Made by a program: the position numbers and the translations under genes
Source of the DNA: a virus
Lineage: Duplodnaviria; Caudoviricetes
Reading direction: 5' to 3' (one strand)
DNA: 46,729 nt
Virus record (IMG/VR): IMGVR_UViG_3300017761_003339
Location: 1 to 46,729 of that record
The notes under the pieces: model-generated
What the model was told of the DNA's origin: nothing
The model's database searches: none
Seen by the model: the letters and a program-made list of their open reading frames with translations, nothing else
Shown here: one piece after another, positions 5,010 to 14,291 of the stretch
Layout: each line of letters begins with the position of its first letter
How positions within the stretch are numbered: position 1 is the first letter of the stretch

Positions 5010-8000
5010 CTAAGGAATCAAACCTTGAGAATTTGCCAAACCTACAGCAATCAATTTTTGTTGCATTTGCTCTGTAATAAGACCTCTTTTTTGCATATCT
5101 CTTAAATATTTTCTTTCGGAATCATTGCGATAATACTGAAGATGAGTTTTGATTGCTTCCAATTGATCTTGCTCGAAACGATTGAAAAGATTTACAATTT
5201 CTTCTTGGGCTTTTTCATCATTATCTTGCTCAATATAACTAGCAAGTACGGGTTTCAACCTTGCGATATCCTCACCATATTTTCTCAAACTAGTGCGCAT
5301 AACCTCACCCCTAATTTTTAACTCTTCTCTATACAAATCGTTAGGTAATTCGTATTCAAAATAATTAGGAGAATTTGGTTTATCATCAGCTCCCGTAGTG
5401 ATATCCATTTCCCAACGGAATTTATTTTTCATTGGGTTTGAGATAACTTGATACATACCGCTTGTTTTACCATTCCATTTCCACTCGTAATCTCTGCCTG
5501 TCATTTGTTGATACATCATAGCAAGATCCATAAGACCACTATTTACTTTCATAGCATCAACATAAGTCAATTTTTCTTTATCTGCATCTTTAGGAGAAAG
5601 AGAATACTTGCGAAGCGCAAATGGATCAAATACGGCTTGAAAATAAGCACCAGCAGTTCCGGGGTCAGCCAAGGTTACTTTATATTGTAAATCTTCGCCA
5701 AATGGGCCTATTGCAGCCTTATAGAACTCGTTTCTAGTATCTTCATTAAAAGATATATTTCGATTCAAACGCTGTACAGTTTTAATTACTACTGGTCCCC
5801 AAGCGGCTGGCCAACTATTATCTTCTCTAAATTTTGAAATTTCACTTGCACTCTGTACTATTTCAGCGTTTCCTTTTGACATAAAGGAGAAGAAAGAAGG
5901 GAAGAAAACTGACATAGATGTACTTAAAGTTCCAGATGCAAAATTCTCCCAAGCCTTAGCACTTGTATCGGGGTTTTTCAAATCGTTTGTCAGAGCCCCA
6001 ACACGAGCTAAACCTTGGAACATCGGAAGATTTTCAATACCATTACTCAAAGTACTCTGAATCAAAAATCCTAAACCATTCTTTTGATCGTCAAGAAGTT
6101 GACCCATACCATTTTCTCTTTTAGCACGACCTTGTTCATAAACACTACCATACAAATTCATTGCGTATCCAAGGAAACCAGCATTATTGGTGTTAAGAAT
6201 TTTATCACCATTCTTAGCAAAACCGCCTCTACGAGTAATAAAATTATCTGTGCCCATTTGCTTACCCCAATCTTGACCAAATGTTTTTCCTACGTTATTC
6301 AAAAGAGTCATTCCATTGGCTTTCATATACTCAGCGTGCAAAGTAGCATTGTACAAACCACCACGCAATTGTATGTTTTTCAATGATTTATCTTTTTCCA
6401 TATCGCCTCCGATTAGAATGGCTCCTGCTTTAACAGCAGACATTGCAAAACCATAGATTGCCCAACTTGTTATCATCTGAGCAGCATCATAGGTTGCTTG
6501 TCTTTTAGCAGCAAACAAATCAATTTTAGCCAATTCGTAATCCTTTCTTTGCTTTTCGTTATTTAATTTTTTACCTATCTTATAATTTTTGTTAAATTGT
6601 TTGAATTTATATTGGTAAATACCTTCAGAAATCAAATATTTAGGACTTGCGATTGCAGGAACTGTCTTAGCGATTGCAGTACCCAAGAAGTTAACAGGTA
6701 CTTTTGTAAATGGCATCAATGTCCAAAGTGCTACATCACCGACTTGTAAAAGGTTCTTACTCATTCCACCTACAGTAAATTGCCTTTTTATTTCTGAGCC
6801 CAATCCTGTACCCGGAGTTTGAGCACGATTGGTTGAATACAAATCTCTTACTTTCTTTCTGATTGCACCACGCCCTGCGGAAATGGCTCCAGAAATTATG
6901 TTGTCTCCCAACAAAGTACGTTTTAAACCTTCTCTTTCGAAAGCAGCATACATTTCTCCATTGTTATAAAGAATAGCGCTCATAGCACGAATTACATCCT
7001 CATCTAGTTTACCATCTGCTTTTTTGAACATACCATCGAATATACCATCTTGGAATCTTGTGCCTTGAATGTTTTGGAAGTAGTCTATCATCGACCTTTG
7101 AGCAGCCATTTGACCAAAGGAAATATCACCTCCATATGCCATAACACGTCCGGTAAATTCAGCAGCGGCAGGTCCAAAGGATGCTAATAGCATTGAAGGA
7201 TTTCCACTAGCAATAGCACTAACAGGCCCAAGACCAAAACTCCACGCCAAACTACGAGCCAAAGTATATTCTTTTCCGTCACGCAATTCTATAGTGCCAT
7301 TTTTGAGTTTGGTGAGTGTTAAATCCAATGCATCAGCTTGCTCTTCCATCGTCATATCAGACAATGATTTACCTGTGCTCTTGTTCACCCAAACATCCAT
7401 AAACTTAAATGCCCATTGAGGATCTTTGAAGAAGTTAACTTGACCTAAGTTGTCATAATAACGATCCAATCCTTTGTTGGTATTCAATACACCATACTTA
7501 AAGTTGTTACTTTCAATATAAGAATATCTTGCTTTTGACAAATTTCTAGCCATTTTCCAATTGTCAAAACTTAAAGTATTACCCTTAATTCCTTTGCCGA
7601 ATTGATCACGCAATTTTTGTATTGACCTAGCAGCAAAGTTAGTGCTCCATATATTATTTTCTATGTTGGCTACATAACTTAAAACAGCAGTACTGACATT
7701 TAACAAAGCACGGCTACCACCAGAAGTAATTCTCTCGTTCCAGAAAATTGGCTTTCTAGCCTCTAAGAACTGAGCAACACGGATAGTTGCATCTCCTACT
7801 GCTTTCTCAGACTTCCAATAGTTATCAAACGCTTGGTCTGACCAATCGGTTTCTAATGCAGAAAGAAAGTTGCTATTTAATTTTTGAGAGTTTTTATAAT
7901 CATTGACAAGTGCAGTCAATGTTTCTTTTTGTTTTGGAGTAAGTATAACTCCGTTGTTTTCTAGCGTTTTTTCAATTGCTTTCTGAGTCCCAATCTGATT

Positions 8001-11000
8001 AAAGAAACGAGCCATCTGTAATATGCGACCTGCTTGGCTGAATAACTCAGATGATACTTGGAAAGCGTAAACAATAGATTCGGGAGTATACAAGTTATCA
8101 CCAATCTTACCAGAACGAACTTGGTCTGCCCAATCTAATCCTTTATCTATCAAATCTTTATCTTGTCCAAATCTTTTAACACCTTGTGTCAAAGCAATGG
8201 CGATTTGGTCAAAGCCCTGTTCTTTCAAATACTGAAGGAACATATCCATTGTAACTGCACTATCTACAAGTCCTAATCCTGTTTCACGCAATACGTTAGC
8301 AACATCAGCAGCCTTTTGTTCAACCTTTAAGTTTTTAGCATCTTCTTCTAACTCATTCAAGAAATCGCTTGGGTATTCTTTATCTCTATCCAAAGCATTC
8401 TGAACGGTTTTACGATAGTCAGCACCAAAAATATCAATCAAATCTTCATTGCTCAAAAAGTCCATGTCTGTGACAGCCTTAAAAATCTCCAAAGGACTGA
8501 AATCTTGTGCAATTAAATTCTCATAAATAGAATCAATTGCTGATGGGTCAATACTTATCTGACGAGTAATTTCTACTTGACGATCACTAAATGCTGTATT
8601 AACCTTATTCATTGTTTCAACAGCAATATTGGCTTGTGCTTGCTTAAAAGCATTCTCATCAAAAAGAGAAGTACCCAATACCTCTTTGATTCTCTTTGGT
8701 GTATATCCTTTGTTAATCAAAGCCGTAAAACTAGAAACTTTATTGTTTCTGCTTTGTTGCATAGCTTGAGAAAAGTCTAAAGCAATGTTGCTGTAATTTA
8801 ATTGACCCTTATTTATAAAGCCTTCGAATATAGGTTTTAATGTTGTTTGAGTATAAGAATTAGGATTCTCTGCATCTAACAAAGTAATAAACGGATCGAG
8901 GAAAATTATTTGACCCTTTGGAGTAAAAAATACATTTCCATTGTGCAAATCATCAATTAAAATACCACCTTCAAAATTTTCAGCGGTAACTTCCATGTCA
9001 TTTTTTAGAATGCGTTTTTTAGATATTTTCGCTGGCCAAGTAATTCTTTCTTGCAAAGCATCACGTAATTTTTCTTGGTCTGCTAGATTAGTTTGTTCAA
9101 TACCTACTATTCCGTGAAACATACGTTGTTTTAAAATAATACGCAATGTTGGTTCGGAATTTAAAAGTCGAGCAAGACCAATCGGAGTTTCTTTTCCTTG
9201 CCTCACATCATCACTAAAACCGAGTATTTCATATGCTGTTTCAGGAAAAATGGTATTGTAAGTCATTATCCTTCTCATCAAACTCAAATAGTTTATACCA
9301 TTGAGAGGTAATGTTGCTTTGTATGTATACTTAGAAGTTTTACTCAGCCATACTCTAGATTCTTCGCCTGCTGCAATTTCATACATCGGAGGAAAAATGT
9401 TCTCTAATTTATTTAGATAAACATTATTCTCTTTGGCAAATTCTCTTAAGAGGTCTTCATCTTTTCCTTCGGTGTCGAAGTCATTTGATTCACCAAAGAA
9501 ATCCCAGGAGTTATCTTTAAAAAGTTTTGCAAGCTGATTGATGGCTGCTTCTCCCACTCTTCCAAAAGTTTCTTTGTTACCTCCGAGGGGGATGGATTCT
9601 TCTTCTGTCCATCCAAGTCTGTGGATGTCTCTTGCATTTCCGTTTTCATCTACTAATATTGGTTTTTTTAATTGTGACTTATTTATAAAATCAGAGTCTG
9701 ATATCTTACTTACTACTGCTCCACTTGGACCAAAAGAATTGTCTTTTGTAACCAAAGCCTTAGGGCCAAGTATATCTTGAAGATACTCAACTAGTTCATT
9801 GCCATCAAATCCTTTTTGATATGCACCATTGCTTATTTCATAACTCTTTGATTCTGGACCTTTCTTTCCTCCTTTTGTTGGTTCAATATCGTTCTTCCAC
9901 TTGCGTGAACTGATTACTGCCTTACCGCCATCATTCAACTTATCAAATACATCTAAAACAATAGCATCACGAATGTCCTTAGGAACTGCGTTTACTACGT
10001 TTAATAATACAACACCATCATACTTCTTATTGATTTGATCTGAGCCCGTAAATGTAGGTTTTTGTTTACCTTGCCATCTTTGTGGGTTTGGTTCATACGA
10101 ATCAATATTACGCCCCAAAGTATTTGCAATGGCATCTGTTCCGAGACCCAAGCCTGCACCATAATCTAAAACATCACCCGTCATATCTTTAAGCAAATTG
10201 GCGGCTTTCACATAAGAACCAACTGTATTTGGACGCTGAGTTGTCACACTAGCCGCTTCAGAACGAATCTTTTGAGATTTGTTTAAGAACTCATCAACTT
10301 GAGCCGGAGATGCTACGTCTTCTTGACTTTCTTGGGGAGTGACTTGAGATTCTGTTTGGGGTTTTCCTTCGACCACTTCTTCGCCAACGCTGGCTTCTGA
10401 CTGTACAGGAACTTCATTTGTGCTTTGCTCTTGAACGGCATTTGTTTTTAGTTTTAATTTTTCGGAAACTTTTCCTGTCGCTAATGTTTCTGACAAGGCA
10501 TTCATATAATCAATAAATCCTTCACGAGTTCTAATACTCTCGAACAATTGAATTTTACCATTGGTGTTTCTTGCGATAAAATCTGAAAACACCCTAGCAA
10601 TTTTTTCTATAGAGCTTAATTTTAAAGTCTTTCCTTCCTCGGCTAAAGTTGATCCAAGTTCAACAGTGAACTCTTCGCCTTTTTGACTATTTCTATAACC
10701 ACTTACCAAAGCATTGATTGAGGCTAAACCTTTTTCACCTAGTGTTTTTCGTGTTACAGCAAGTAAATCATTTTTCATTTGTTCAAACAACTTTGAATCT
10801 GAGCCCAAAGTATTCAACAAAAGCAAGTGAGAAACCTCGTGGCCTATAGTTGTATTGGTGGCAGCATCCATATTGATTTGGATTTCTGACTGAAATTTAC
10901 CAGTCTTCTCATCATATTTAAGAGAAATGTTTCCGGCTTTGTTTTCAGCCGTGCCCATTTGTTTCATCGATTGAGAAAATTCCTCTTGGTTCATCATAAT

Positions 11001-14000
11001 GATGTTTACCCCTGGCGTTACTTCATCCAATACACCTTGTAATCTTTGAGCATCACTTATAAGTTTATCAGCGTTCTGTTGACCAGCCGCTCTTGCTTTA
11101 TCTGCAATTTGATTTAACTTCTGTTCGTCTTTAATTGTAGCACCCAAAGAAGTTGCCGCTGTTTGCGCTGTTGTGACTATCTGAGGCCCTTGGGCAACTA
11201 AAGCGGTATCTTCTTGAGTTGCTCGGTCTTTAGCTTGTTTAATGGCGTTATTTATGCTTGCGTCTTGACTCTCGATTTTGATTTTATCGTCAATAACAGC
11301 ATTTACAAAATTACCATCTGTCATAGAAGTCAACAAATCATTGTTATCAACTACGATACTAAAATTATCATTGAATGTAATTTTGGTGTAATCTAAATTT
11401 TTACCTGTTGCAACATCAGTGAGTTTTTTATCGATTCCTTTTATTTGAGCATCGATTAAAATTTTTGTATTCTCATTTGTTTCTTTATTCGCAAGTTCTT
11501 GTAATCTTGCTTTTTTAACGGCCAAACTCACATAGTATTTTTGATGGTCTCTATTGCTGATTAGTTCTTTTGCGGCCGGGAATGTTTTAATTACCTCGCT
11601 GAAAGATTTTTTCATATCTTTCAGTTCGTTGATGTCTATCATTCCTTTTGCATACAAGTATTCTGGTAATACATTTACTCCTTTTTCTCCTAGTACTTGA
11701 ATTGCATCTGTAACCATTTGAGATAAACCAGCATCCTTAAGTTTTGCAAGGACACGATTTTTGCTCTGATCTATTTGCTTTTCACGAATTGATTCCATAA
11801 TCGAACTACCACCACTTAATACTGCTACTGTTGGTAAAATATTAATTGCAGTCGATAATCCATTTTCTGAGACCCAAGAACTGAAATCAGTTGGATTATC
11901 AGTGCTATATTTATAGTTAAGGTAACCTTGTGGAATTTCTTGAAAAACTTCTTGAAGCTCCTCAACTAACGTGGATACTCCAATTTTACGAGCAACTCCT
12001 CCAATACCATAACCTTTGGCAATTTTGCTAAGAAATCCTTTTGTGAAAGGCATCATTTCGAAAGCATACGTAGGAGAAATTAAAATTTGAGTTCTCAAAC
12101 TTTCAGCCGCAGCATTTTCTGCTTCAAAAATAGAACCTGTACGCCTAAAAGCATTTCTATAATTTTCACCGGTTTGATTCCAAGTATCTTGAGCAAAACC
12201 AATTGCTCCGCCAATAAACGGATTGCCCGTCAAAACAGTTGTTGCAATTGGCACAGCCATATTGACACCTTGCATTGATAAGTTTTGTACAACATTTTTT
12301 AATGCCTCTACACTTAACAAACCTTCTGTTTTTAATATCTGATCAAAAGGTCTAATGTATACTTGATTGGAATTTTCTACCAACTCTAAGTGTTTTAACA
12401 AACCTGTTAATGGATTGTCTTCATAACCAACAGCAGCACTTAATGAAGTAATAGCATTTCCAAATTGGTTTGCTGCTGTTCCAACAATTATATCTCCCAC
12501 TCTCCATCCAATGCTGTTGCTATTTTTTACTTCTTCTACGGAATAATCGCCATACGCTTTTTGATATGCATCACGATATTTTCTATACGCTGCTGTAGTC
12601 AATTGATTTTTTTCATTGACATCTTTTGCAATACCATATTTTTTTTGAATGGCTTCTAAATCTTTTTTAGATTCATTTTCAACTTGTATAAAAAATTCAG
12701 ATGCTTTTTTCTCAGCCTCTTTTTTTAATAAATCTGCCGTTTCCTCTAAAATAGTATTTTCTTGACTAACTAAATCAACATAACTCTTATATGCTTGATC
12801 ACGTTGATCTTGACTCAAATTCGGATTAGATTGTACAATGCTCAAATAAGAATCATAAGCACTTTTTGTTTTATTTTCTGATGTGCTCTTAAGCGAAGAA
12901 AATGCTTGTTCAAATTGACCTGCAAGTTCTCGGTCAAAATTATTCTTAACTTTTTCTGTATTGGCTACTAAAGACTTAATATCATTTTCCGCATTTATAT
13001 CTGCCCTTTTTACATCTTCTGCAAATACATCAACTTCGCCAAGTTTCTTTTCAACAATAGATTGAATCAAAGTTTCTTCGGCTTTTGCCTTTACCATACG
13101 GAGCAAACGAGGTTTAACCATTTGAGCAACCTCTTCTTTGCTCATATTCAATTTTTTAGCTGTCTCATCGTTTATCGGACCAAAAGTAGAATTTAAATAT
13201 TCATCTACTTTGTTCTCAACATAAACAGGATTGATTTTTGGATTGTTAGCATCGTCTAACATTAAAACACCAAAGTCATAAGACAACTTACGATTGGGAT
13301 TAAGTTCTCCGTCTATTGTAGCTGGGTTGTCAAAAAAGTTGGCTGGCATATTAGAACCAAAACTTTTTAAAAGACGATTGGCATCTGGTAAAAGCGTTTG
13401 GTCAAGTCTTTTTTCAGATTCTCCCATTCCTTGCTCTACCATCATTTCAGTTTCTGTAGAACTAGCAATGTTTAAATCATCATAATTCTGCTTGCCTCTT
13501 ACATAATTTTCAATCGCATCTTGCTGTTCTGAAATTGGTTTTGGCTTATCGGCCTCAGCTAATCTTTCAGTTATACTTTGTTGTTTGAAAGGTGCTCCTT
13601 CTTGTTTTGGCGCAAGCGCAGGAAATTCTTTCTTTTGTATTTTGGGTTTTACTACTAGGCCAGCATCATTAACATCAACATCATATTTTTTATTAAGTTG
13701 CTTGACCATAGTATTCAAATCCTCATCGACATCAGGATTCTTTTGGAGTTGCTTATATACCTCTACAAAGTTTTTAACTTTTTGCGCAACTACAGGAATA
13801 TTGATTGCAGGTTGCTCTGTTAAGGCAAATATCTCACGATAAAGATTTTGATACTGTGTTGATAATGGACCACCGAAAGGTTCTCTTCCAGTTGATTTGA
13901 TGAGTGATGATGGCTTTGGGCCTTCAGTTGAAGGAACTGCTGCACTTGGTGCATTACCCAAAGTTATTGCTACTTGACCATCGCTAGGTGGTGCTACATC

Positions 14001-14291
14001 TCCCAAGTTTTCTGACAAACTCGGCTTGGCTTCAGCCACCAATTCTTCAGTCTGTCCAACCGAAGGAAATTGAAAAGAAGAACTTTCTTCTGCGAGGTCT
14101 TGTATGATTGGCTGGTCTTTTTTTTTTAAGTATTCTGAGGCCGATTTGACACCATATAAATTCTCAAGTGTTGAATCAGCATTTGCATTATTACTAAGAT
14201 ATCCTTCGAAATCTTCTTTCGCTCCAAAATACTGAACGAAATCTGGTTTCTTGCTTAACTCATCATACAAATCTTCGAAAGTTTCTGCCAT
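5010..14291 (-). CDS. Giant polyvalent virion cargo/ejection protein (zincin-like peptidase, class I SAM methyltransferase, kinase-like domain)
   Basis: 3093 aa. HEVSH (10827-10841) with downstream EEF; VLDYGAGLG (about 10146-10166) ... YDGVVLLNVVN; GEESRVW..YK...DLHNGN (8934-8951)...FLDP. Confidence 0.8.
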   Translation of the reverse strand: MAETFEDLYDELSKKPDFVQYFGAKEDFEGYLSNNANADSTLENLYGVKSASEYLKKKDQPIIQDLAEESSSFQFPSVGQTEELVAEAKPSLSENLGDVAPPSDGQVAITLGNAPSAAVPSTEGPKPSSLIKSTGREPFGGPLSTQYQNLYREIFALTEQPAINIPVVAQKVKNFVEVYKQLQKNPDVDEDLNTMVKQLNKKYDVDVNDAGLVVKPKIQKKEFPALAPKQEGAPFKQQSITERLAEADKPKPISEQQDAIENYVRGKQNYDDLNIASSTETEMMVEQGMGESEKRLDQTLLPDANRLLKSFGSNMPANFFDNPATIDGELNPNRKLSYDFGVLMLDDANNPKINPVYVENKVDEYLNSTFGPINDETAKKLNMSKEEVAQMVKPRLLRMVKAKAEETLIQSIVEKKLGEVDVFAEDVKRADINAENDIKSLVANTEKVKNNFDRELAGQFEQAFSSLKSTSENKTKSAYDSYLSIVQSNPNLSQDQRDQAYKSYVDLVSQENTILEETADLLKKEAEKKASEFFIQVENESKKDLEAIQKKYGIAKDVNEKNQLTTAAYRKYRDAYQKAYGDYSVEEVKNSNSIGWRVGDIIVGTAANQFGNAITSLSAAVGYEDNPLTGLLKHLELVENSNQVYIRPFDQILKTEGLLSVEALKNVVQNLSMQGVNMAVPIATTVLTGNPFIGGAIGFAQDTWNQTGENYRNAFRRTGSIFEAENAAAESLRTQILISPTYAFEMMPFTKGFLSKIAKGYGIGGVARKIGVSTLVEELQEVFQEIPQGYLNYKYSTDNPTDFSSWVSENGLSTAINILPTVAVLSGGSSIMESIREKQIDQSKNRVLAKLKDAGLSQMVTDAIQVLGEKGVNVLPEYLYAKGMIDINELKDMKKSFSEVIKTFPAAKELISNRDHQKYYVSLAVKKARLQELANKETNENTKILIDAQIKGIDKKLTDVATGKNLDYTKITFNDNFSIVVDNNDLLTSMTDGNFVNAVIDDKIKIESQDASINNAIKQAKDRATQEDTALVAQGPQIVTTAQTAATSLGATIKDEQKLNQIADKARAAGQQNADKLISDAQRLQGVLDEVTPGVNIIMMNQEEFSQSMKQMGTAENKAGNISLKYDEKTGKFQSEIQINMDAATNTTIGHEVSHLLLLNTLGSDSKLFEQMKNDLLAVTRKTLGEKGLASINALVSGYRNSQKGEEFTVELGSTLAEEGKTLKLSSIEKIARVFSDFIARNTNGKIQLFESIRTREGFIDYMNALSETLATGKVSEKLKLKTNAVQEQSTNEVPVQSEASVGEEVVEGKPQTESQVTPQESQEDVASPAQVDEFLNKSQKIRSEAASVTTQRPNTVGSYVKAANLLKDMTGDVLDYGAGLGLGTDAIANTLGRNIDSYEPNPQRWQGKQKPTFTGSDQINKKYDGVVLLNVVNAVPKDIRDAIVLDVFDKLNDGGKAVISSRKWKNDIEPTKGGKKGPESKSYEISNGAYQKGFDGNELVEYLQDILGPKALVTKDNSFGPSGAVVSKISDSDFINKSQLKKPILVDENGNARDIHRLGWTEEESIPLGGNKETFGRVGEAAINQLAKLFKDNSWDFFGESNDFDTEGKDEDLLREFAKENNVYLNKLENIFPPMYEIAAGEESRVWLSKTSKYTYKATLPLNGINYLSLMRRIMTYNTIFPETAYEILGFSDDVRQGKETPIGLARLLNSEPTLRIILKQRMFHGIVGIEQTNLADQEKLRDALQERITWPAKISKKRILKNDMEVTAENFEGGILIDDLHNGNVFFTPKGQIIFLDPFITLLDAENPNSYTQTTLKPIFEGFINKGQLNYSNIALDFSQAMQQSRNNKVSSFTALINKGYTPKRIKEVLGTSLFDENAFKQAQANIAVETMNKVNTAFSDRQVEITRQISIDPSAIDSIYENLIAQDFSPLEIFKAVTDMDFLSNEDLIDIFGADYRKTVQNALDRDKEYPSDFLNELEEDAKNLKVEQKAADVANVLRETGLGLVDSAVTMDMFLQYLKEQGFDQIAIALTQGVKRFGQDKDLIDKGLDWADQVRSGKIGDNLYTPESIVYAFQVSSELFSQAGRILQMARFFNQIGTQKAIEKTLENNGVILTPKQKETLTALVNDYKNSQKLNSNFLSALETDWSDQAFDNYWKSEKAVGDATIRVAQFLEARKPIFWNERITSGGSRALLNVSTAVLSYVANIENNIWSTNFAARSIQKLRDQFGKGIKGNTLSFDNWKMARNLSKARYSYIESNNFKYGVLNTNKGLDRYYDNLGQVNFFKDPQWAFKFMDVWVNKSTGKSLSDMTMEEQADALDLTLTKLKNGTIELRDGKEYTLARSLAWSFGLGPVSAIASGNPSMLLASFGPAAAEFTGRVMAYGGDISFGQMAAQRSMIDYFQNIQGTRFQDGIFDGMFKKADGKLDEDVIRAMSAILYNNGEMYAAFEREGLKRTLLGDNIISGAISAGRGAIRKKVRDLYSTNRAQTPGTGLGSEIKRQFTVGGMSKNLLQVGDVALWTLMPFTKVPVNFLGTAIAKTVPAIASPKYLISEGIYQYKFKQFNKNYKIGKKLNNEKQRKDYELAKIDLFAAKRQATYDAAQMITSWAIYGFAMSAVKAGAILIGGDMEKDKSLKNIQLRGGLYNATLHAEYMKANGMTLLNNVGKTFGQDWGKQMGTDNFITRRGGFAKNGDKILNTNNAGFLGYAMNLYGSVYEQGRAKRENGMGQLLDDQKNGLGFLIQSTLSNGIENLPMFQGLARVGALTNDLKNPDTSAKAWENFASGTLSTSMSVFFPSFFSFMSKGNAEIVQSASEISKFREDNSWPAAWGPVVIKTVQRLNRNISFNEDTRNEFYKAAIGPFGEDLQYKVTLADPGTAGAYFQAVFDPFALRKYSLSPKDADKEKLTYVDAMKVNSGLMDLAMMYQQMTGRDYEWKWNGKTSGMYQVISNPMKNKFRWEMDITTGADDKPNSPNYFEYELPNDLYREELKIRGEVMRTSLRKYGEDIARLKPVLASYIEQDNDEKAQEEIVNLFNRFEQDQLEAIKTHLQYYRNDSERKYLRDMQKRGLITEQMQQKLIAVGLANSQGLIP
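10313..10441 (-). CDS. Nested small basic protein MPFKSKAQMKFLYSQKPALAKKWSKENPKQNLKSLPKKVKKT
   Basis: 42-aa ORF in an alternative frame inside the giant gene, with an A-rich upstream region (AAAATTAAAACTAAAAACAA-ATG). Resembles the MPFKS..Q small phage proteins (from recall, not searched). Confidence 0.65.
   Translation of the reverse strand: MPFKSKAQMKFLYSQKPALAKKWSKENPKQNLKSLPKKVKKT

Follow-up and report, generated by a model that had tools for sequence, protein, structure and literature searches.

The window, that is, the whole stretch of 46,729 bases analysed here, is a linear virus record. Its minus strand carries a crAss-like virion module, in which portal, capsid, ring and muzzle matches were found. 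At the end of this module lies a giant multi-domain host gene of the polyvalent type (14291..5010, −), coding for 3093 aa. A second, complete ORF runs from ATG to TAG within it (10441..10313, −), in the +1 frame relative to the giant, and codes for a 42-aa peptide with a weak likeness to phrog_1375. This nested MPFKS gene is present exactly as an earlier, sequence-only reading had given it, and the codons of the giant over the same bases (10311..10442, −; aa 1284–1327) contain no stop and read as the acidic linker quoted there. In the window's clade, the cassette is directly preceded by an HExxH zincin-like domain (10452..11174, −; approximately aa 1040–1280, with the HExxH motif at aa 1151), whose assignment as a peptidase rests on the residues H, E and H together with a more distal E, all of them invariant across 15 aligned rows; a Pfam search of the giant gave no peptidase match. 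Eight codons past the stop of the peptide, in agreement with the earlier description, comes the first FLNKSQK junction motif (10269..10289, −; aa 1335–1341). A repeated F-[IL]-N-K-[SG]-Q motif, found at aa 1336, 1536 and 1826 of the giant, borders the methyltransferase and kinase modules, and is possibly a recombination joint or a cleavage site.

The two modules correspond to a methyltransferase-like domain (9906..10190, −; PF13489, E 4e-4, below the Pfam cut-off) and a Kinase-PolyVal domain (8880..9464, −; aa 1610–1804; PF18762, E 7e-12, above the cut-off). The giant combines several effector domains and an HExxH metallopeptidase in one large virion-module protein, as polyvalent proteins do, and by analogy it is likely a packaged cargo protein. 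With its HExxH, methyltransferase-like and Kinase-PolyVal domains and its place at the end of the virion module, it resembles the polyvalent proteins and the crAss cargo proteins, as presented in the available text of PMC5512222 and PMC10172136, respectively; with regard to the cargo of the latter source, we infer both the likeness of gene position and the packaging of the window's giant. The word 'overlapping' is absent from the main text of PMC5512222.

The nested peptide is small and strongly basic (42 aa, net charge +12), as a packaged DNA-binding core peptide would be, carries no His, no Cys and no hydrophobic signal, and is predicted to form two helices (residues 6–15 and 17–26). Its predicted model has a pLDDT of 76, and the best VIA-align Z, at 3.1, is too low to be meaningful. 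Pfam holds no family for it, and neither Pfam nor PHROG gave a match to a nuclease family. A profile search of the PDB returned repeat artefacts only and no matching solved structure, Foldseek on viral models gave nothing at E ≤ 0.001 (the top rows were uncharacterised phage proteins with 40–52% identity), and the ESM Atlas returned 30 unnamed clusters at up to 0.95, with no Pfam family common to them. A decayed second copy of the cassette was looked for in the window and not found, and no RNA holder is listed for the region of the nested ORF.

Sequence homology places the peptide in a family of small basic phage proteins, the phrog_1375-like MPFKS family. A protein search retrieved 24 homologs of 33–69 aa among 31 candidates (best E 6e-14), and the family profile matches the window at 2e-23, whereas the direct match to phrog_1375 is weak (E 0.0023, residues 3–27). 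The phrog_1375 members and other small basic phage proteins belong to the same sequence family, but are free-standing. In the alignment, 8 of the 42 columns are invariant, and the conserved features are an N-terminal motif, a central Ala/aromatic part and a Leu-Pro-Lys end. The peptide also occurs as a module of longer proteins: a dedicated search gave 111 matches, and the module stands at the N-terminal end of 99 of them, at the C-terminal end of 5 and inside 7. Fusion proteins were scanned in overlapping sets, 10 in Pfam and 19 in PHROGs, and two had a MuF-type minor head protein as partner and one a prohead protease, most partners being without known family. One further protein, P0026, joins the N-terminal 1033 residues of a giant in frame to the peptide; compared with its intact cluster mate P0138 it carries a deletion, and, as it comes from one contig, it is possibly an assembly artefact.

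An estimated 3,800 or so IMG/VR stretches contain a pattern match for the family. In GTDB genomes, a single pattern yielded no more than 5 loci. Among cultured phages, 68 of the 75 matching records are Flavobacterium phages, and phages of Flavobacterium, Synechococcus and Prochlorococcus all carry the peptide. In Flavobacterium phage elemoA_7-9A (Elemovirus, MT497017), the gene lies at +1 inside a 3694-aa 'structural protein' (L162:12001-12129) and is unannotated, which bears out the expectation that gene callers miss it. Two cysteines are found in this copy, together with an insertion of two residues. The stand-alone relatives suspected in the earlier reading exist among the homologs retrieved and in the cultured phages S-CBS2, C75C1, P-RSP2 and 023Pt_psg01; only the last of these copies, located in the head module, is annotated (URG13095.1). 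Those of Synechococcus phage S-CBS2 (L342:3501) and of P-RSP2 (L345:3501) sit in unannotated gaps of cultured cyanophage genomes. A literature search, conducted mostly outside subscription papers, found no description of the MPFKS family or of its nesting.

Of 398 confirmed IMG/VR stretches, the best 80 were used to establish the addresses of the gene. A frame of over 700 aa, that is, a giant, houses the peptide in 45 of these 80 loci, and a frame of 384–419 aa does so in 10; in the other 25, the peptide lies in no long frame. All 55 nested copies in this set share one relative frame, and the 47 best of the 80 loci are nested without exception; taken with the E-value of the best homolog, this places the nested ORF far beyond chance. 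In a scan covering 67 of 119 listed neighbours, the shorter host gene lies between the portal gene and the likely capsid gene, which is the scaffold position, and its products cluster apart from the giants; both nesting hosts belong to the virion module. Within the giants, the cassette is found anywhere from host aa 392 to 1888, and in 56 hosts the 150 residues that follow it form 33 groups. With regard to the stand-alone loci, the scan of neighbours found terminase, portal, capsid or adaptor genes at 9 of 13, and no head gene among the scanned neighbours at the remaining 4, two of which adjoin replication genes. Whole records hold a single copy of the gene in 29 of 30 cases, and the remaining one contains a fragment of 15 residues in addition. 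At L016:6721-6755, the 3' end of the cassette is partly duplicated about 700 nt downstream within the same giant gene, and a weaker duplicate exists in L333.

Selection was compared between the two frames in 41 distinct, ungapped giant-nested copies out of 46, including that of the window (one duplicate and four copies with indels were dropped). The peptide frame has a pN/pS ratio of 0.17, compared with 2.7 for the host frame, and protein identity is 83% for the peptide versus 54% for the host frame; as the nested copies are related, these figures and the counts given here indicate a direction and are not independent events. By position in the peptide codon, entropy amounts to 0.42, 0.22 and 0.85 in these 41 copies, which makes the wobble base of the host the most conserved. 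The 16 scaffold-nested copies show the same direction (pN/pS of 0.37 in the peptide frame and 0.82 in the host frame). Judging from these substitution patterns, the peptide frame is guarded more strictly by evolution than the spacer itself. The host frame is under selection as well: T occupies the third position of the peptide codons in 2.8% of cases in nested copies versus 26% in 8 low-GC stand-alone copies, the codon usage of the window would leave the host frame open with a chance of 0.0025, and the host-frame segment contains 10 D+E, compared with 4.3 expected.

The nested ATG is preceded by an A-rich region (10442..10461, −) written in the codons of the host, with weak local structure, which would serve as an internal translation initiation region. 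Scored with a weight matrix built from 42 gene starts of the window, this ATG ranks first among the 227 ATGs of the giant gene. In the available text of PMC6847099, Baez et al. report that A at −3, −6, −12 and −13 acts positively on initiation in Flavobacterium; the window has A at −6, −12 and −13, i.e. three of these four determinants, and C at −3. The Bacteroidota-type initiation region described from the sequence is A-rich over its 20 nt as claimed. Across 45 loci of the family, A is found at −3, −6, −12 and −13 in 35, 27, 31 and 36 loci, respectively. At the host wobble sites of the seven codons upstream of the ATG, there are 236 A versus 149 expected and 6 G versus 68.5 expected, and this bias is back to background beyond 14 codons upstream. 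An in-frame stop lies at a median of 4 codons 5' of the nested ATG in the same loci (in the window, a TAA two codons before it), and only 6 of the 45 copies contain a −1 slippery heptamer. The rank of the ATG, the synonymous excess of A, the upstream stop and the scarcity of heptamers favour internal initiation, which on these sequence signals would be the best reading of how the nested gene is expressed. The ATG is kept in all 56 nested copies, where the host residue varies between D, N and Y, and the stop, TAG or TAA, is likewise kept in all 56. At L073:5976-6000, in a phage with 58% GC, a GGAG Shine-Dalgarno-like motif written in host codons replaces the A-rich leader. A promoter and terminator scan around the ORF returned nothing above shuffled sequences and no coding-strand site, Bacteroidota promoters being outside the model of the scan. 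Recoding of stop codons was considered and is unneeded, 20 of 21 late genes ending in TAA and the giant being open in table 11. The homologs, the selection on the peptide frame and the best-scoring start strongly support the proposal of a real nested gene, and we hold it to be very probably both real and translated.

The sample described so far was chosen by the peptide; relatives chosen by the capsid protein (63 loci) provide a sample independent of it. Among 32 longer records of this sample that were searched, three known carriers being left out, the nested gene was found in 5, in each case after the peptidase domain, and among capsid relatives at least 90% complete in 2 of 12. Since it is missing from the other 10 near-complete relatives, its product cannot count as a core head protein, provided that diverged copies did not escape the search. 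The full linker is likewise lacking in four homologous giants without the peptide, one of them retaining a short acidic stretch like the 3' end of the linker. The joint appearance and disappearance of gene and linker indicate the capture of an existing gene, and not an invention on an old linker. We conclude that the gene is an optional cassette acquired by capture, as opposed to a new invention. The original description of it as overprinted, taken to mean that it arose on a linker already present, finds no support: members of the family occur on their own and as N-terminal modules, 25 of the best 80 of 398 loci are non-nested, and the linker is missing where the gene is missing.

In a tree of 83 rows and 43 columns, a starred clade comprises 41 giant and 1 scaffold copies, and a second clade 15 scaffold copies and 1 stand-alone copy. 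This tree needs 7 changes of address; an AU test does not reject a single clade of nested copies (p 0.09), and multiple origins are unsupported by the tree alone. The existence of two non-homologous hosts implies at least two insertions or one move. With regard to the mechanism, we can propose that a ready-made gene was inserted together with its start region at a domain junction. The insertion would have been tolerated in that lysine-rich codons, read one base earlier, yield a Glu/Gln-rich, stop-free spacer, and third positions may later have been tuned so that both frames work.

The MPFKS gene is not the only small gene in such a location. The best 80 genes by likeness to a carrier (the scaffold query) include 77 distinct complete scaffold-position genes, among which 12 nest the MPFKS peptide, 45 nest a second, unrelated basic peptide in the same place and frame (L095:2714-2833 and 44 others), none nests both and 20 nest neither. 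Profile comparison found the second family unrelated to the MPFKS family. It is under purifying selection (pN/pS of 0.28 versus 1.7, 112 copies), has weak DUF7230 and phrog_6310 matches, has pattern matches in an estimated 3,200 or so IMG/VR stretches, and was searched for in the window, where it is absent. Among 35 whole records, 19 have the MPFKS gene only, 11 the second family only and 5 neither, the two never occurring together; these records were picked as carriers or scaffold matches, and lineage can explain the exclusivity. A supposed resemblance between the second family and ArfA, a ribosome-rescue factor, was discarded: ten of its peptides gave no ArfA in Pfam, and the PDB offered no match.

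Within the window, another nested +1 ORF, of 67 aa, is located at the start of the kinase module (9649..9446, −), just before the Kinase-PolyVal domain. An ATG ORF of 56–67 aa occupies the same spot in six of seven distinct kinase modules, the seventh having one of 40 aa, and a comparable ORF was found in 12 of 866 control windows. A protein homolog search with the 67-aa ORF found none. As a guess, its product might be a partner or an inhibitor of the kinase.

The reading that we prefer, with a probability of about 0.6, is that a gene of a widespread family resides in the spacer of the giant, is likely translated separately and likely encodes an optional, basic two-helix peptide binding DNA or the inner head. 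The nested gene would be translated on its own from late mRNA via its internal A-rich start, and the two-helix peptide would bind DNA or the inner head during head assembly. Considered as a separate statement, the role of accessory, head-associated nucleic-acid binder falls somewhat short of an even chance. The DNA-condensing core peptide initially suggested fits the charge and the gene context by analogy; the absence of the gene from most near-complete relatives means that such a role would be accessory.

The main rival accepts a real, translated peptide and proposes that late in infection it acts inside the cell on something universal among hosts, be it the ribosome, the RNA polymerase or host DNA, the location among head genes serving only late expression. 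The maintenance of the same peptide in phages of Flavobacterium, Synechococcus and Prochlorococcus would suit a conserved target; the gene is also dispensable, and its product small, basic and lysine-tailed. However, DNA is likewise a universal target, and the fusions to MuF-type and prohead-protease proteins, with the module N-terminal in the great majority of matches, fit a head-linked module better, and we consider this rival unlikely, though worth keeping in mind. It is improbable that the peptide is a charge partner or chaperone of the acidic protein encoding it, i.e. the giant's linker or the N-terminus of the scaffold, made from the same mRNA. The medians of +12 for the peptide and −7 for the host segment speak for such a pairing, as does the use of the same acidic scaffold slot by two unrelated basic peptides not seen together; yet opposite charge follows from codon geometry (AAG read one base earlier is GAA/CAA), there is no linker where the gene is absent, and stand-alone copies retain the same conserved residues.

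The sequence-only reading had also envisaged a regulator of the adjacent peptidase, having placed the gene right after that domain. This position stood for the window and its clade (L007, L019 and the five capsid-selected carriers), and Iyer et al., in the available text of PMC5512222, suggest that such domains carry out autoproteolysis. The adjacency does not hold across the 46 giant-nested loci: 3 of them have an HExxH no more than 200 aa upstream, 12 have one downstream, and none was seen in the other 31, part of which are cut. In addition, close giants keep the peptidase without the peptide, and scaffold-nested and stand-alone copies show no peptidase link, which weakens regulation or inhibition of the HExxH domain to a quite improbable role. 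Programmed frameshifting into or out of the frame, whose product would be either a shortened giant ending in a basic tail or a C-terminal half tagged with the peptide, would accord with the module being a natural N-terminal tag in fusions and with P0026, where it is joined to the N-half of the giant; in view of the stop shortly before the ATG, the selection on this ATG and its upstream adenines, the few heptamers and the single-contig, deletion-derived nature of P0026, it is very improbable. Lastly, an untranslated shadow or relic over a linker that alone matters is scarcely credible, even if lysine-rich +1 frames arise easily over acidic linkers and several short ones exist in peptide-less giants, given that variation is concentrated at the third base of the peptide and avoids the host's wobble base, that start and stop are kept in every nested copy and that synonymous sites are under selection upstream of the ATG.

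Embedded +1 genes and stop-free out-of-frame insertions are already known, and what is novel here is an optional, non-nuclease gene in the spacers of two unrelated virion genes. In phiX174, J is a small basic packaged DNA-binding peptide encoded by a separate gene, and gene E, a lysis gene, is nested in the scaffold gene D. The likeness to J and E lies in a small basic peptide and in a gene within a scaffold gene; the comparison with solved structures returned no match in sequence or fold. In lambda, Rz1 is embedded in the +1 frame of Rz, and spanins are embedded, overlapped or separated, according to the available text of PMC6139136. As in the Rz/Rz1 pair described there, the MPFKS gene lies wholly inside a larger gene on the same strand at +1, its family also occurs separately, and gene callers miss both; with its own start and stop in the other frame, its purifying selection and its initiation signal, it appears to have an embedded architecture of the Rz/Rz1 type. 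In contrast to Rz1, which the same text presents as always paired with its own partner Rz, the MPFKS family is optional and occurs in two non-homologous hosts. Unlike Rz1, again within the scope of that text, the peptide is without lipoprotein features and a partnership with its host is only putative; as it lacks the lipobox Cys and its host is a 3093-aa multi-domain protein and not an i-spanin, it does not qualify as part of a two-component spanin.

[quoted passage not shown] In both cases, as far as the available text of that source goes, the insertion is stop-free in the host frame and presumably forms a loop there, contains a complete out-of-frame gene and is found in only some relatives. 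The MPFKS cassette differs from the ShiLan of that text in its length of 42 codons, in having no endonuclease or homing means and in its purifying selection as a cargo gene. The stop-free frame and patchy distribution of the ShiLan type are thus present at our locus, and its HNH/homing endonuclease is not.

Extending these observations, we can tentatively propose that in aquatic Bacteroidota podoviruses the acidic spacers of scaffolds and giant cargo proteins are parking slots for small basic genes, with two unrelated families interchangeable for one head job and a third gene acting as a built-in kinase inhibitor, many 'acidic disordered linkers' being shadows of captured genes; we see this generalisation as possible, and as yet doubtful. 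Out-of-frame insertion in a harmless spacer may allow phages to gain and move small genes while the operon is neither broken nor made longer. The about 3,800 and 3,200 IMG/VR pattern matches of the two families, together with the unannotated state of the nested copy checked in a cultured phage, suggest that phage annotation, like the databases used for proteomic searches, likely lacks a layer of small virion-module genes. The results also call for caution, as another gene can leave its shadow in the form of a conserved motif in an acidic linker. The cultured Elemoviruses on Flavobacterium make the function of the peptide directly testable.
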